A DNA stretch of 40,806 nucleotides from Candidatus Iainarchaeum sp. (GTDB lineage: Archaea; Iainarchaeota; Iainarchaeia; Iainarchaeales; JAZDDZ01), in NCBI GenBank assembly GCA_043809245.1, contig JAZDDZ010000016.1:1-40806 (forward strand). Reading direction: 5' to 3'. A model generated the notes under the pieces. That model had not been told where the DNA came from and made no database searches. It saw only the letters and a program-made list of their open reading frames with translations. Made by a program: the position numbers and the translations under genes. Of this stretch, positions 20,113 to 36,873 are shown in pieces; position 1 is the stretch's first letter, and each line of letters starts with the position of its first letter.

Positions 20113-21317
20113 ATAAAAAAATAATTTTCATTGTGTGCGATGGCCTTGGCGACAGGCCTGTGAATTCGCTTGGCGGGAAAACGCCGCTCGAGGCAGCCAA
20201 AACACCAAACCTTGATTTGCTTGCTGAAAAGGGAATCACTGGATTGATTGATGTAATCGACAAAAGCATTTACCCTGATTCGGATATAGCGCACCTCGCG
20301 CTCTTTGGTTTAACGCCGGAGCAAAGCAAAATTGAACGCGGCCCAATCGAGGCACTCGGCATAGGCATGGATTTGGGAAAAGAAGATGTTGCATTCCGGT
20401 GCAATTTTGCAACAGTGAATGAGAAAATGGAGATAATTGACAGGCGTGCGGGAAGAATTGACGGAACTGAACCATTGGTAAAGGCACTGAATGGCATTGA
20501 AGTGCAGGGAATTAAATTTCTTGCGGCAAAGGGAACAGGGCATCGCCTTATTCTTGTTATGAAAGGAAAGGGGCTTTCGGGAAATGTTTCCTCAAATGAC
20601 CCGAAAGCCATTGGGGTGAAAAGCCCTGAAGTTAAGGCGCTTGATGCATCTGATGAAGCAAATCTATCTGCAGGCGCATTGAATGAATTCCTTGCAAAAG
20701 CTCGCGAAATCCTTTCAGCGCACCCGTTCAACAAAAAAAGGGAAATGAAAGGGCTTTTGCCAGCGAACTATCTTCTCTGCAGGCACGGCGGAAAAATTGC
20801 ATTGATTCCTTCAATGAAGCAAAGGTTTGGAGTTAATTCCGCTTGCATTGCGGGTGCGGGATTGTATAAAGGAATCGGAAGGCTTTTGGGGATGCGGTTA
20901 ATTGAAGTGAAGGGCGCAACAGGCCTGCCTGATTCGGATTTGAATGCAAAAATTTTTACGGCAATCAAGGCGCTCAAGGAATTTGACTTCGTTTTCGTTC
21001 ACATTAAGGCTGCTGACAGCCTTGGCGAGGACGGAAACGCGGAGGGAAAGAAAAAATTCATTGAAAAAATCGACAAGGCAATGGCGCCACTGGTTTCGCT
21101 CAAGGGCTCGCTTGTGGTTGTCACTGCAGACCACTGCACTCCATGCGAATTGAAAAAGCACTCAAGCGACCCTGTTCCTGTGCTTGTTTCATGCGAGGGG
21201 GCAGAGGCAAATGGAGTGAAACGTTTCTCAGAAAAGGATTGCTCAAAGGGAAGCCTCGGGAGAATTAGGGGAATTGAACTGATGCCTCTGCTAATGCGCC
21301 TCGCAAGCAAAAGGTAG
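20109..21317 (+). CDS. apgM: 2,3-bisphosphoglycerate-independent phosphoglycerate mutase
   Basis: DGLGD, KTPLEAAKTPNLD, AFRCNF, DRRAGRI, HIKAAD, TADHCTP, HSSDPVP. Confidence 0.93.
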   Translation: MNKKIIFIVCDGLGDRPVNSLGGKTPLEAAKTPNLDLLAEKGITGLIDVIDKSIYPDSDIAHLALFGLTPEQSKIERGPIEALGIGMDLGKEDVAFRCNFATVNEKMEIIDRRAGRIDGTEPLVKALNGIEVQGIKFLAAKGTGHRLILVMKGKGLSGNVSSNDPKAIGVKSPEVKALDASDEANLSAGALNEFLAKAREILSAHPFNKKREMKGLLPANYLLCRHGGKIALIPSMKQRFGVNSACIAGAGLYKGIGRLLGMRLIEVKGATGLPDSDLNAKIFTAIKALKEFDFVFVHIKAADSLGEDGNAEGKKKFIEKIDKAMAPLVSLKGSLVVVTADHCTPCELKKHSSDPVPVLVSCEGAEANGVKRFSEKDCSKGSLGRIRGIELMPLLMRLASKR

Positions 21318-35142: not shown

Positions 35143-36540
35143 ATGGTGAAAGCAAATGACAGCAGGAAAAGTAAAACCCTGCTAAACCGGGTTCTGGGCC
35201 GGATAAAGCCCTCCAAGAATGAAAAGGCACGTGAGCTTGCATTTGCAGTAGAGCTGGTTAAAAAAATCAATGCAATAGAGGGAAAGCACGCAGAGGTAAT
35301 GCTTGCCGGCTCGCTTGCACGGGGAACAAACCTGAAGGGCGACAGGGACATAGACATATTTGTCCTTTTCCCGGAAAAAATGCCTGAAAAGGAATTCGAA
35401 AAAGAAGGCCTGAGAATCGGGAAAACTGCTTTCAAGGGGCACAAATGGGAGGAGGCGTTCTCGCAGCACCCGTACATTCGCGGAGAAATAAACGGTTTCG
35501 ATGTGGAGGTTGTTCCAAGCTATAAAGTGGAAAGCGCTTCAATGCTTAAAAGCGCAGTTGACCGAAGCCCTTTTCATTCCGCTTACCTTGAAAAAAAATT
35601 AAGCGAAAAGCAAAAAGAAGAGGTTCTTCTTCTCAAGCAGTTTTTGAAAGGCATCAGGGCCTATGGCGCGGAGCTGAAGACAAGCAGTGTTCCCGGTTAT
35701 GTGACTGAACTGCTTATCCTTGCGTACGGGGATTTTTTGGGTTGCATGAAAGGGGTAAGCGGATGGCATGAGGGAAAAATAATCGACCTTGAAAAGCATT
35801 TGGCGCCTGAGGAAGCGCGGAAAAAATTCCACCATTCCCCGCTTATAGTGGTTGACCCTGTTGACGAAAACAGGAATGTTGCCGCTGCGCTTTCCGAACA
35901 GCAGTTCGCAAGACTTGTCGCGGCGGCAAATGCTTTCCTGAAAAAGCCGTCAAAAATATTTTTCTTTCCGAAAAAAACAAAGCCAATGGCGATTGCAAAA
36001 CTTAAGAAAAAATTAGTTGAAAAAAATTTCCTAGGGCTTTTTTTGCTTTTCCCGAAAGGGCTTTTGCCTGACATCTTTTGGGGGCAATTGAAACGCATTG
36101 AAAGGAAGGCATCAAACCAGTTAAGGGAAGGGGACTTCACTGTTTTAAGGCATGTTGCCTGGACTGATGAAAAAAAGGACACGGCAATTATTTTCGAGCT
36201 TGAATCGCTTGAAATTGAGCAAACAGAGCAGCGCATTGGGCCAATGGTTTCACAGAAAGAGCACAGCGCGGCATTCCTTGCGGCTCACAAAAAGCCCTTG
36301 AGCGGGCCGAGGGTGGAGAACGGAAGATGGGTTTTGGAGGAAAAACGAAGCCACTGGCACGCGGAAAAATTATTGAAAGACGCGCTTGAAAAACTGAAAA
36401 AAACAGAGAAAGGGATGAGGAAAGCGTTTTCAAAAGCAAAGGCACTGGATGAAAAAGCCATTAGCGTGCTTTACCGGAAAAACAAATTGTTCGCGGAATT
36501 CTTAACTGAGTTCATTGAAGGAAAAGAAATTTGGGAATGA
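35143..36540 (+). CDS. cca: CCA-adding enzyme (archaeal class I)
   Basis: GSLARGTNLKGDRDIDIF, HPY, SAVDRSPFH, LLKQFLKG, GYVTELL, DPVDENRNVAAA. Confidence 0.95.
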   Translation: MVKANDSRKSKTLLNRVLGRIKPSKNEKARELAFAVELVKKINAIEGKHAEVMLAGSLARGTNLKGDRDIDIFVLFPEKMPEKEFEKEGLRIGKTAFKGHKWEEAFSQHPYIRGEINGFDVEVVPSYKVESASMLKSAVDRSPFHSAYLEKKLSEKQKEEVLLLKQFLKGIRAYGAELKTSSVPGYVTELLILAYGDFLGCMKGVSGWHEGKIIDLEKHLAPEEARKKFHHSPLIVVDPVDENRNVAAALSEQQFARLVAAANAFLKKPSKIFFFPKKTKPMAIAKLKKKLVEKNFLGLFLLFPKGLLPDIFWGQLKRIERKASNQLREGDFTVLRHVAWTDEKKDTAIIFELESLEIEQTEQRIGPMVSQKEHSAAFLAAHKKPLSGPRVENGRWVLEEKRSHWHAEKLLKDALEKLKKTEKGMRKAFSKAKALDEKAISVLYRKNKLFAEFLTEFIEGKEIWE

Positions 36541-36559
36541 TTGCGCAGAAAAAGGCAAA

Positions 36560-36585
36560 TCGGGCCCAGAGGGATTTGAACCCCC
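36560..36585 (-). repeat. Duplicate of the tRNA-Arg 3' end (att-like core, 26 bp)
   Basis: TCGGGCCCAGAGGGATTTGAACCCCC is identical at 36560-36585 and 36740-36765. Confidence 0.92.
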
Positions 36586-36739
36586 CGCAACCTTTTCTAA
36601 AGAAAAGCTTGACCAAAAAAATTTAATTTGATTGAATTCTGCGAAGCAGAATTCCCGTTTTTGATGACCTTGCAAAGAAAAAGCTTTGCGAGGTCTTGAA
36701 AAGCTACTAGCTTTTCCAGAACCTTTTTTTGAAAAAGGT
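36586..36739. mobile_element. Miniature hairpin-rich element or island scar between tRNA-Arg and its 3' duplicate
   Basis: 154 bp flanked by att-like repeats and filled with five consecutive inverted repeats; no convincing ORF. Confidence 0.6.
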
Positions 36740-36740
36740 T

Positions 36741-36814
36741 CGGGCCCAGAGGGATTTGAACCCCCGTTAGCCGGTCCGAAGCCGGCTGGTCTATCCAGGC
36801 TAGCCTATGGGCCC
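36741..36814 (-). tRNA. tRNA-Arg (anticodon UCG), no intron, CCA not encoded
   Basis: GGGCCCA/TGGGCCC acceptor stem, GCCGG-CTTCGGA-CCGGC anticodon arm, GGGGG-TTCAAAT-CCCTC T arm, discriminator G. Confidence 0.93.
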
Positions 36815-36873
36815 TGAACAATAATTATCTTCATCCAAAGGATTTTATAGGAGTTCGAATAAATCTTATTAAA

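Follow-up and report, generated by a model that had tools for sequence, protein, structure and literature searches.

A hairpin array with a duplicated tRNA tail behind tRNA-Arg(TCG) of a Candidatus Iainarchaeum genome: trailer hairpins and a possible att-type recombination joint

The window analysed here is a stretch of 40,806 nucleotides from a Candidatus Iainarchaeum sp. genome (1.48 Mb in 55 contigs, 92% complete), in which a tRNA-Arg(TCG) gene and a convergent cca gene enclose a short, hairpin-rich interval (Table 1). The tRNA gene is contiguous and has no intron according to both ARAGORN and Rfam. A repeat search of the window returned an exact 26-nt direct repeat (TCGGGCCCAGAGGGATTTGAACCCCC; 36560-36585 and 36740-36765, spacing 180 nt) that spans the T stem to one base past the discriminator (discriminator +1) of the tRNA; by our own arithmetic, the chance expectation of such a pair in 40.8 kb is about 2e-7. 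Together with the ARAGORN call, this search confirmed the tail duplication reported in a preliminary description of the locus. Over the 154-bp interval between the copies, the only open reading frames are short ones (43-74 aa), which traverse hairpins, repeat copies, or tRNA sequence, and none encodes an integrase. A metagenome scan with the cca protein gave a single relative (49% identity), with no adjoining tRNA.

Table 1. Features of the hairpin-rich interval and its neighbours, in positions of the window.
Feature	Position	Strand	Remarks
cca	35143..36540	+	archaeal-type CCA-adding enzyme, by reading of the translation; ORF; convergent with the tRNA, outside the element
Second tRNA-tail copy AATCCCTCTGGGCCCGA	36560..36576	-	T-loop position 59 to discriminator +1; repeat search, locus comparison
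Linker CGGGGGGTTCA	36577..36587	-	mimics T-stem 5' strand plus half of the T loop
Distal hairpin MOTIF, TTTTGGTCAAGCTTTTC-TTTA-GAAAAGGTTG	36588..36621	-	conserved G.G mismatch in stem
Inverted repeat I11	36588-36598/36601-36611		91% complementary
H4 with conserved spacer CATCAAAAACG	36634..36666	-	hairpin 36634-36654 (I13); spacer 36656-36666, in tRNA sense
Inverted repeat I13	36634-36642/36646-36654		100% complementary
H2 and H3, variable interior hairpins	36666..36716	-	H2 36698-36716, H3 36666-36695; I6, I1
Inverted repeat I1	36659-36677/36684-36702		encloses 36666-36695 of the preliminary description
Inverted repeat I6	36694-36706/36708-36720		
H1, AACCTTTTT-CAA-AAAAAGGTT	36719..36741	-	I7; immediately 3' of the tRNA; T5 run in tRNA sense
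Inverted repeat I7	36716-36728/36732-36744		
Repeat copy 1	36740-36765 (+ coordinates)		last 26 nt of tRNA-Arg(TCG); includes 1 base beyond the discriminator
tRNA-Arg(TCG), intact	36741..36814	-	ARAGORN; Rfam tRNA model, 54.4 bits

Five hairpins lie between the two tail copies. All five inverted repeats named in the preliminary description were recovered by the repeat search, with the small correction that the tRNA-proximal hairpin extends, through its right arm, into the beginning of the repeat and into the tRNA end. The 200-nt interval has a predicted folding energy of -65.3 kcal/mol as minus-strand RNA (z -4.45) and of -61.9 kcal/mol for the plus strand (z -4.58), with none of 200 shuffled sequences folding as well in either case; the earlier impression of an ordered interval, as opposed to random decay, is borne out. 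Nothing observed singles out the strand antisense to the tRNA, on which the element had been proposed to fold. The outermost hairpins yield short terminal inverted repeats (AACCTTTT...AAAAGGTT), which are found at both ends of three of the four related inserts described below; each lies within its own palindrome, the right one 11-12 nt inside the joint. The GC-GAA-GC triloop to which attention had been drawn is not conserved, as the homologous hairpins have TGGC and TTGG loops. Rfam 15 returned only tRNA, RNase P, and weak chance matches at about 80 loci and the window locus, and a scan for sigma-70 promoters, a model not applicable to archaea, returned nothing.

Part of the array resembles ordinary gene punctuation. 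H1-like hairpins also follow tRNA-Ser(TGA), tRNA-Ser(GGA), and tRNA-Leu(CAG) and occur in the native flank of the attR of an integrase island at tRNA-Ala(CGC) on contig C49, and the H4 module recurs in C31, C3, and C47 and behind the same attR, with one compensatory pair. Because H1 and H4 with their T-runs are thus found behind five tRNAs of the genome, including the native side of an attR, they look like an ordinary terminator-like trailer. Directly after tRNA-Arg, within H1, the sequence carries a T5 run, as would be expected of an oligo-T terminator, and on the plus strand H4 is followed by T5, a terminator-like match that faces cca (H4 plus CCGTTTTTGA on the cca strand, in a scan that gave 3 sites against 1.6 expected). 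The T-runs of H1 and H4 on both strands most likely serve to stop transcription from either side. H2 and H3, in turn, are strain-variable additions. An independent 399-nt contig from run X1 contains the same tRNA and 62 upstream bases with 0 differences, followed by a variant interior, the distal hairpin, and the second tail copy; in that contig, 32 other letters take the place of 77 nt of the H2/H3 region, and X3 omits 53 nt of it. Across three genomic copies, the pairing of H3 is kept through three both-sided changes. The interval is therefore not the unitary 154-bp element first proposed, since one part is a trailer common to five tRNAs and another varies between strains. An explanation by convergent terminators, named beforehand as a refuting alternative, applies to a portion of it (the H1/H4 trailer and the H4-T5 unit facing cca).

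The distal hairpin, here termed MOTIF (consensus TTTGGTCAAGCTTTT-variable-AAAAGGTTG), is the mark of a multi-copy family. A covariance model, R1, which has its best match in the window (E 4.1e-10), detects five copies in the source genome, the next-best match having an E value of 0.059. Four copies lie behind tRNAs (Arg-TCG, Ser-TGA, Ser-GGA, and Ser-CGA), and the fifth directly adjoins the 3' end of tRNA-Ala(TGC). The four loci lie within 36500-36850 of the window, C31:3560-3860, C47:13040-13290, and C49:62630-62820. All four tRNA-trailing copies have the same 31-nt core, and each continues through a T-stem-like linker, which sets the core 11-12 nt from the repeat, into 17 nt duplicated from the tail of the local tRNA. 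These tail copies begin at the same T-loop position at all four loci, and all four upstream tRNAs are intact. The 17 nt are the locus-specific part common to the four copies; at tRNA-Arg, the exact repeat extends to 36585. Linker CGGGGGGTTCA is identical in the tRNA-Ser(TGA) copy, and the remaining two copies share CGGGTGGTTTGC. Linkers that exist in two shared versions (2 + 2), next to tails that are locus-specific on both sides, give the arrangement the appearance of a joint between an element side and a target side. Over about 190 nt, the C16 and C31 inserts share 76% identity, the C49 copy has no left end, and at C47 the upstream tail copy matches the tRNA's own 5' acceptor strand, with a mismatch in the downstream copy. 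The possibility that the element is single-copy can be dismissed in view of four related inserts at four tRNAs, homologous hairpins behind a fifth, and variants that environmental relatives carry both at this tRNA and at others.

A genuine integrase island in the same genome provides a point of reference for the duplicated tail. At tRNA-Ala(CGC), an integrase gene (PF00589, 52.3 bits) adjoins the tRNA, and about 16 kb off a 23-24-nt repeat, from the T arm to discriminator +1, precedes an H1-type trailer. This repeat has the same geometry as the tRNA-Arg tail duplication, in agreement with the earlier view of the latter as att-like; no MOTIF is present at the island's attR. None of the six integrase genes (PF00589 matches) of the source genome adjoins a MOTIF or lies between the tail copies at tRNA-Arg. 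The integrases of G092, G042, and G009 have no att link to a MOTIF; in G042, the one integrase near a MOTIF simply follows a tRNA-Cys that has MOTIF as its 5' leader.

Searches for Cas1, RVT_1, Y1_Tnp, and PF00589 linked neither a transposase nor an integrase to the interval. Cas1 is absent from the source genome and occurs in 11 of the 151 genomes of the order, only 3 of which are among the 53 MOTIF-positive ones; a casposon-derived element was rejected on these grounds. Retro-insertion was rejected as well, there being no RVT_1 in a genome that is 92% complete. Y1_Tnp is found in 15/53 MOTIF-positive and 28/98 MOTIF-negative genomes, which amounts to no co-occurrence, and two 96%-identical IS200-like copies bear other end hairpins; an IS200/IS605 end or PATE was discarded on both grounds. 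With five copies and no linkage to Y1, the family does not have the properties of a REP/RAYT system. One TnpB was found. An integron attC site was set aside when the R''/R' consensus did not fit by eye, and a viral source when the single IMG/VR match was to a contig that, by our reading of its ORFs, resembles a bacterial phage and was taken as chance.

Outside the source genome, MOTIF has a wide but patchy distribution. Among the 151 genomes sampled in the order, 53 contain it according to model R1, with 1-22 copies apiece; it is present in 14/16 genomes of family f24 and 12/15 of f30, and in 0/16, 0/16, and 0/13 of f3, f11, and f27. It also occurs in at least 119 stretches of public genomes, including other DPANN-labelled MAGs, with a core that hardly differs among MAGs bearing the labels of several DPANN phyla. 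The 22 copies of G109 are embedded in T/A-rich low-complexity arrays and are uninformative. Both orientations relative to the tRNA are seen. The stem extension of MOTIF covaries (25 cells changed on both sides, a value reached in 0/500 shuffles), and a CGAGC/GGTCG variant keeps both the pairing and the G.G mismatch. As the loop varies from 3 to 30 nt, a fixed-distance promoter is ruled out, and no conserved upstream box was seen. MOTIF matches no described RNA family in Rfam, and literature searches by its sequence (both orientations, as DNA and RNA) and by topic found no paper on the hairpin.

Many copies directly adjoin the end of a tRNA exon, the end of a tRNA, or the tail of a gene. The GGTTG end abuts exon 1 in canonical, T-loop, and D-loop introns, and elsewhere it abuts tRNA 3' ends, tRNA 5' ends, and start codons (1-12 nt). 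By our reading, about 18 of 81 public instances reside inside tRNA introns, flush with exon 1, and in the complete genome G063 four of the five real copies lie in tRNA introns, the other being inside an RNase P RNA (200.1 bits), at what we take to be P3. ARAGORN reports odd 'introns' at several MOTIF loci. Duplicated sequence beyond the hairpin recurs too: 11 of the 81 instances are followed by a copy, at least 13 nt long, of sequence no more than 400 nt upstream, 7 of these copies being same-sense tRNA tails, and repeat lengths across genomes range from 13 to 30 nt. G092 has the same tRNA-tail arrangement at 4/9 loci examined, and its inserts at 3-4 tRNAs have in common a left hairpin type, MOTIF, and the linker. 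The same composite of roughly 75 nt is found upstream of unrelated genes in four genomes.

Tail pairs in relatives bear on how such arrangements arise. At L057 both tail copies encode MDENGMSNVVSLKV-stop; beyond a 23-nt identical block, the next 24 nt differ at 8 positions, and every change is synonymous. Both tails encode IEIELKEGK-stop at L092, with 6 synonymous differences and the same downstream hairpin type, and MTLL-stop at L030, while L062 has two tRNA-Arg(CCT) 3' parts with different but internally paired T arms. Being pairs of synonymously diverged orthologues, the tails point to laterally acquired DNA that was integrated by recombination, and in these relatives the portions beyond the identical block are of foreign descent. 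The public DNA runs that match the stretch share only small parts of it and contain only variants or relatives of the window locus, and no empty site at this locus, which the preliminary description had proposed to look for, turned up in them or in the genomes compared, all from other families. C32 carries a diverged version of the C31 locus, with different genes downstream of tRNA-Ser(TGA), and hence is not a clean empty site. Neither an excised form nor a full-length parent element was found in C32, the metagenome cca relative, or the L103 and L113 genomes, and the orphan MOTIF plus tRNA 3' pieces of L103 and L113 occur only once in the respective genomes.

Taken together, the best explanation of the interval is a composite, in which trailer hairpins are joined at their far end to a recombination joint made up of the 34-nt MOTIF, the 11-nt T-stem imitation, and a second tRNA tail from the T loop to discriminator +1. 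A plausible if still tentative model, held at somewhat less than even confidence, would treat [tRNA tail + trailer + MOTIF + linker] as one unit, a 'tail-replacement' cassette of att type that lacks an integrase. Incoming DNA would carry a tRNA 3' quarter beside MOTIF, and Campbell-like recombination within or close to the T loop of the chromosomal tRNA would produce a functional tRNA at one border and an extra tail at the other. The same two products are left by tRNA-integrating plasmids and viruses. With no gene of its own, the cassette would depend for its movement on functions supplied in trans, either one of the genome's tyrosine recombinases or, once DNA had been transferred laterally, homologous recombination; alternatively, it would be a remnant of a larger element. 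The anatomy of the unit, the family and its distribution, the foreign tails of relatives, and an island of equal repeat geometry are observations, and the crossover mechanism, the enzyme, the direction of transfer, and the terminator role of the trailer are inferred.

The model of an att-type cassette is consistent with the four exact MOTIF cores 3' of tRNAs, each with a local tail copy of the same T-loop start, with the shared linkers as against locus-specific tails, and with the geometry of the island at tRNA-Ala(CGC). The foreign tails of L057, L092, L030, and L062, the recurrence of tail copies elsewhere (public instances and G092), and the combination of variability and lack of constraint (the X1 interior, patchy families, the 75-nt composite) also argue for it. 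Several observations run counter to it. There is no integrase or ORF between the repeats and no integrase of the source genome beside a MOTIF; a circle of ~180 bp is implausible as a tyrosine recombinase substrate; and no empty site, excised form, or full-length parent is at hand. A single attP sequence common to all copies was not found, MOTIF and linker being shared and the tails tRNA-specific, and a single fixed attP could not supply the right tails to four different tRNAs, all of which are intact. The tail pair of C47, with its acceptor-strand match upstream and its mismatch downstream, likewise does not conform, and integration leaves the many MOTIF copies in tRNA introns and in RNase P RNA unexplained.

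The constant 17-nt repeat of all four copies would be better accommodated as a target-site duplication. The hairpin array that ends in MOTIF and linker might then be a true miniature transposon, cut and pasted or copied by a putative enzyme whose staggered cuts would fall within the T loop and immediately beyond the 3' end of the tRNA, with homologous recombination through the duplicated tail spreading copies between lineages and producing the chimeric tails of relatives. Identical repeat boundaries at four loci (position 59 to discriminator +1) around locus-specific sequence, the shared insert ends of C16 and C31 and of the G092 inserts, the identical core, the terminal inverted repeats, and a variable copy number in patchy families fit this view. 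It is nonetheless rather unlikely, given the lack of any candidate enzyme (Cas1 and RVT_1 absent, IS200-like ends different, Y1 equally frequent in genomes without MOTIF), repeat lengths of 13-30 nt across genomes, the C49 copy with no left end, and the low copy number. A selected punctuation module, active at the RNA or DNA level as a two-way terminator and/or as the intron-side helix next to a bulge cleaved by the tRNA splicing endonuclease, is a further possibility, in which the duplicated tail would be a side effect of recombination between module-bearing and module-free alleles. Such a role predicts that MOTIF should directly border the ends of exons and tRNAs and the starts of genes, and indeed its GGTTG end abuts functional boundaries; the apparent P3 position in RNase P RNA, the covariation of the stem extension and of the CGAGC/GGTCG variant, the T-runs on both strands, and the terminator-like H4-T5 unit point the same way. 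But MOTIF was not found in 98/151 genomes of the order, including whole families, and this patchiness is unlike that of a core processing signal; its occurrence in both orientations relative to the tRNA means that no single RNA-level reading can hold. The loop of 3-30 nt and the missing upstream box also weigh against selection for punctuation, as do T5-T9 runs inside introns, which would hamper transcription, so we regard it as unlikely.

Four larger integrated elements, or tandem tRNA duplicates, could instead have decayed independently to hairpins. Integrase islands at tRNAs do exist in the source genome, and C31 and C32 differ downstream of tRNA-Ser(TGA) as expected of a hot spot. However, four decays would not leave the same core, the same 11-12-nt distance, and the same repeat boundaries, and the attR of the real island has no MOTIF, which makes this history very unlikely. 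A truncated tandem tRNA was rejected, since it would require an identical internal deletion four times. Chance similarity or an assembly artefact is scarcely credible. The assembly, in 55 contigs, would leave room for it, but the exact 26-mer, the same architecture at four loci, a fold z score of about -4.5, and the independent X1 contig with the same tRNA, distal hairpin, and second tail all contradict it.

Comparison with known systems reveals partial likenesses. As in SSV-type and pNOB8-type att repeats, the repeat is a tRNA 3' part that ends just past the discriminator, with the upstream tRNA intact; it begins in the T loop here and in the anticodon arm in one relative, the element-side flank imitates a T stem, and a real island is present in the source genome. 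In contrast to those elements, the insert is 154 bp long with no integrase and no cargo, and its tails are correct at four tRNAs, which is impossible from one attP. MITEs, REP/BIME, Correia, and Rickettsia palindromic elements are small palindromic repeats. The inserts are similarly short, non-coding, hairpin-forming, dispersed, copy-variable, and patchy, and some, like the Rickettsia elements, occur inside RNA genes; they differ in having few copies (5 here, 1-22 in the order), a core nearly identical across DPANN-phylum labels, long flanking repeats (17 nt here, 13-30 nt elsewhere), a strong linkage to tRNAs, and no cognate transposase found. Casposons generate target-site duplications of at least 14 nt at the 3' ends of tRNA and protein genes, and so resemble the present case in target and in the long duplication, but Cas1 was not found in the source genome and only in 3/53 MOTIF-positive genomes. 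Split tRNA genes with complementary leader and trailer are known from Nanoarchaeum. As for archaeal tRNA introns, MOTIF forms the exon-proximal intron part in anticodon, D, and T loops of relatives, and the tail repeat begins near the relatives' T-loop intron position, whereas the tRNA-Arg of the window is uninterrupted and needs no splicing. In the published model, as outlined by Sugahara et al. (2012; PMC3293823), integrating elements deliver tRNA fragments and tRNA introns together, which would favour an att-type cassette; in likeness to this outline, the tRNA fragments and introns of relatives share one sequence, MOTIF.

More generally, MOTIF-ended arrays might constitute a tiny selfish-element family of DPANN archaea that colonises structured-RNA genes, a proposal that is possible but doubtful. 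Its sites would be the anticodon, D, and T loops of tRNAs, tRNA ends, and P3 of RNase P RNA, and the arrays would persist either through removal by host tRNA splicing, as tRNA introns, or through the carriage or duplication of the gene tail, as at tRNA-Arg of the window. If true, this would reveal a sequence-tagged route by which archaeal tRNA introns and fragments arrive. A recent census of Asgard tRNA introns (bioRxiv 10.64898/2026.10.13.758758) describes the question of their arrival as still open. Were the interval merely a terminator and a recombination scar, it would be of local interest only. If the broader reading holds, one conserved hairpin of 30-50 nt would join att-type spare tRNA tails, non-canonical tRNA introns, and small palindromic repeats, topics usually treated apart, in the poorly known DPANN archaea. 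For annotators, MOTIF is a practical flag for tRNA genes that are missed or mis-called. It offers substrates on which the splicing endonuclease and integrases of such archaea could be assayed, and it would be a traceable marker for tRNA-gene interruption and for gene-tail swaps between lineages.

The tRNA-Arg(TCG) gene lies on contig C16, the entire window, of a source genome of 1.48 Mb in 55 contigs with 44% G+C. Its placement among the archaea is based on the genes as read here and on how MAGs of relatives carrying the distal hairpin described below are labeled. As the preliminary description had stated, the tRNA 3′ end is duplicated exactly: its last 26 nt, comprising the T stem, the T loop, the 3′ acceptor strand, the discriminator, and one further base, recur at 36560-36585, 180 nt off. 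The repeat search that located this copy also recovered all five inverted repeats listed for the interval. The impression of an orderly interval was borne out by folding far above that of shuffled sequence on both strands (z about -4.5, 0 of 200 shuffles equal). The GAA triloop stressed at the time did not hold up, being unconserved among homologous hairpins.

Related DNA was found 3′ of other tRNAs when the genome was searched. Four loci, collected from the downstream flanks of every genomic tRNA and a search for the distal hairpin (the one farthest from the tRNA), are listed in the table. At all four, a spacer of 14-154 nt separates the tRNA from an identical 31-nt core, TTGGTCAAGCTTTTCTTTAGAAAAGGTTGCG. 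A short T-stem imitation stands 3′ of the core (CGGGGGGTTCA at two loci, CGGGTGGTTTGC at the other two), and each insert ends in a 17-nt copy of the local tRNA tail, running from T-loop position 59 to discriminator +1, with one mismatch at C47. The interiors at C16 and C31 are also alike, at 76% identity. A covariance model of the distal hairpin, R1, matched the four loci and one extra copy, located on the opposite strand and flush with the 3′ end of tRNA-Ala(TGC); no other match in the genome fell below E 0.05. A fifth tRNA, Leu-CAG on C3, is followed by the interior hairpins but has neither the distal hairpin nor a tail copy. C31 (5994 bp) and C32 (3199 bp) are homologous, diverged versions (86-96% identity) of one locus holding tRNA-Ser(TGA) and tRNA-Leu(GAG), with a 2.6-kb insertion and different genes downstream of tRNA-Ser, which reflects either a duplication or a mixture of strains in the assembly.

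Features of the source genome and contexts of the distal hairpin in other genomes
Feature	Contig or loci	Position	Strand	Remark
tRNA-Arg(TCG)	C16	36741-36814	minus	ARAGORN
cca gene	C16	ends 36540		ORF; convergent with tRNA-Arg(TCG)
Insert locus, tRNA Arg-TCG	C16
Insert locus, tRNA Ser-TGA	C31
Insert locus, tRNA Ser-GGA	C47
Insert locus, tRNA Ser-CGA	C49
tRNA-Ala(CGC) island, ~16 kb	C49	20791-36799		outside the window
tRNA-Ala(CGC)	C49	36728-36799	minus	PF00589 integrase directly downstream
23-24-nt tRNA 3′ repeat of island	C49	near 20791-20813
IS200-like element, ~755 bp	C23	36800-38500		Y1 transposase; two copies, 96% identical
IS200-like element, second copy	C8	84200-85277
Hairpin flush with exon 1, start of canonical introns	e.g. 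L055, L058, L071, L111
Hairpin in T-loop introns	L072, L085, L100
Hairpin in D-loop introns	L114, L127
Hairpin flush after tRNA 3′ ends	L063, L068, L076, L093, L117
Hairpin flush before tRNA 5′ ends	L074, L098, L038, L046

The genome also contains a genuine integrated island at tRNA-Ala(CGC), with an adjoining tyrosine-recombinase gene and, at its other border about 16 kb away, a 23-24-nt repeat of the tRNA T arm and 3′ end. A weak TnpB-like fragment with one in-frame TAG lies within it (C49:23189-23341). A tyrosine-recombinase gene also follows tRNA-Cys(GCA) by about 530 nt at C4:40100-41180, an arrangement present in a relative as well (G042, locus L209), and no second repeat for it was found in the source genome. 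Fragments of the IS200-like element occur on C33 and C2, and a tRNA-Gln with a 1186-nt intron called by ARAGORN (C10:38843-40121) is probably an artefact joining two tRNA-like pieces.

On the native side, beyond the island repeat, stand a hairpin of the type nearest the tRNA (H1), AACCTTTTT-AAA-AAAAGGTT, the spacer TATCAAAAAA, and a second hairpin. The plan H1 ... CATCAAAAACG-H4 at C16, C31, C47, and C3 matches this flank, and because the same plan recurs at these sites, H1 and H4 look, from their sequences, like a trailer recurring behind tRNA genes of the organism. Both have T-runs in both directions, and H4 followed by CCGTTTTTGA has a predicted terminator-like score for transcripts from cca, in a scan that yielded 3 sites where 1.6 were expected. 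H2 and H3 are additions to this plan. A contig from one public sequencing run (X1) carries the identical tRNA and 62 identical upstream bases, yet relative to the window it has 32 different letters in place of 77 nt of the H2/H3 part and an extra 51 letters close to the distal hairpin; another run (X3) skips 53 nt of the H2/H3 part. When the three genomic copies are compared, both-sided changes that keep pairing appear in 4 of the 21 interior pairs predicted.

The distal hairpin extends well beyond this genome. The pattern TTTGGTCAAGCTTTT-N3-30-AAAAGGTTG, which grew out of weak hits to other families within the order, was matched by at least 119 stretches from public prokaryote genomes and once in IMG/VR. 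The matches listed mostly come from MAGs labeled Woesearchaeota, Nanoarchaeota, Micrarchaeota, Iainarchaeum, Parvarchaeota, or Altiarchaeota, or bear less specific or non-DPANN labels (e.g., "uncultured Methanosarcinales"). Within the order, 53 of 151 sampled genomes are R1-positive at E <= 1e-4, with 1-22 copies; families f24 (14/16), f30 (12/15), and f2 (7/9) are mostly positive, and at the same threshold R1 was negative throughout the samples of f3 (0/16), f11 (0/16), and f27 (0/13). In the genome with 22 copies (G109), these stand in T/A-rich arrays of similar hairpins (L190-L199), possibly within low-complexity coding sequence of the other strand. A G.G mismatch is conserved at the stem base and is retained in a G092 variant with A-T changed to G-C. 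The inner stem differs in both length and sequence among copies but keeps its pairing (25 both-sided changes, 0 of 500 shuffles equal), whereas the invariance of the eight outer pairs follows from the construction of the search. No conserved box apart from a T-run was found upstream of the hairpin, no Rfam family matched, and its sequence was not found in the literature text searched.

Of the at least 119 public stretches, 80 were fetched, and 81 instances of the hairpin from public genomes were examined. A perfect T arm lies within 110 nt of 32 of the 81 listed, compared with 203 of 5000 random windows of the source genome, and about 38 of the 81 contact a tRNA gene, as judged from flanks read by eye, Infernal, and ARAGORN. 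The hairpin end abutting tRNA sequence is always GGTTG (CAACC on the other strand). Besides the contexts in the table, the hairpin occurs ahead of partial tRNA 3′ pieces; some copies lie 1-12 nt ahead of start codons, and in four genomes a two-hairpin composite of about 75 nt stands upstream of unrelated genes. A single complete genome, G063, was examined and has five real copies. Four of them occupy tRNA introns (three canonical, one in the D loop), and the fifth lies within the RNase P RNA gene. In this last copy (L106/L188, G063:C1:76300-77300; gene 200.1 bits), the hairpin is immediately 5′ of GAGGAAAGTCC and is taken to occupy the helix P3 position. At L103/L175 and L113/L176 the hairpin precedes a tRNA 3′ quarter (T arm and acceptor strand), for which no second copy in the genome and no 5′ part nearby were found; they may be remnants, or parts of split tRNA genes. 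L115 holds a tandem pair of hairpins, and behind each stands the same tRNA 3′ end piece in reverse complement, which suggests that one tRNA end was the site of repeated events.

Duplicated tails are also found in relatives. In 11 of the 81 instances listed, the hairpin is followed by a repeat of 13 nt or more whose other copy lies within 400 nt upstream; seven of these duplications are same-sense tRNA tails. Nine loci fetched from G092 include four further cases, and the initial 20 loci from relatives include several. Where protein-gene tails are copied, an identical block gives way to synonymous differences only: both copies encode ...NVVSLKV* at L057 (8 differences in 24 nt), IEIELKEGK* at L092 (6 differences, with a separate version of one hairpin type behind each copy), and MTLL* at L030. 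At L062, the two tRNA-Arg(CCT) 3′ parts have T arms that are different yet internally consistent. Judged by their coding, both synonymously diverged copies must once have been real gene ends, and one therefore derives from another lineage. This foreign tail arrived with its own trailer and the hairpin, and a crossover in the identical block would have joined it on.

Several mechanisms might produce such inserts. The constant 17-nt length of the repeat would fit a target-site duplication by a putative transposase, but Cas1, reverse transcriptase, Y1 transposase, and the local IS200 ends lend no support (the order-wide R1, Cas1, and Y1 searches apparently covered the same 151 genomes), and we regard this origin as doubtful. 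A selected punctuation or processing signal would account for the flush placement at boundaries; it leaves both the patchiness and the two orientations unexplained and seems rather unlikely. Decay of larger islands is clearly unlikely, and an artefact highly so. Casposons, MITEs, REP elements, integron attC sites, and split tRNAs served as points of comparison.

Because of the geometry, the linkers shared two by two, and a published delivery model, we tentatively prefer an att-type cassette without an integrase, mobilized either in trans or through homologous recombination following lateral transfer. An intact tRNA, an insert, an element-side T-stem imitation, and a target tail to discriminator +1 are features shared with tRNA att sites, and the geometry is that of the tRNA-Ala(CGC) island. 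Linkers common to two and two loci with locus-specific tails look, at the sequence level, like element/target joints. Against such a cassette, an integrase is neither inside nor beside any copy examined, a circle of roughly 180 bp makes an implausible substrate, and correct tails at four tRNAs go beyond a single attP; no empty site, circle, parent element, enzyme, or transcript was found among the relatives' loci, public runs, and genomes searched. An earlier proposal has integrating elements delivering tRNA fragments and introns together (PMC3293823), and delivery of the kind described there would also account for the presence of the hairpin in introns.
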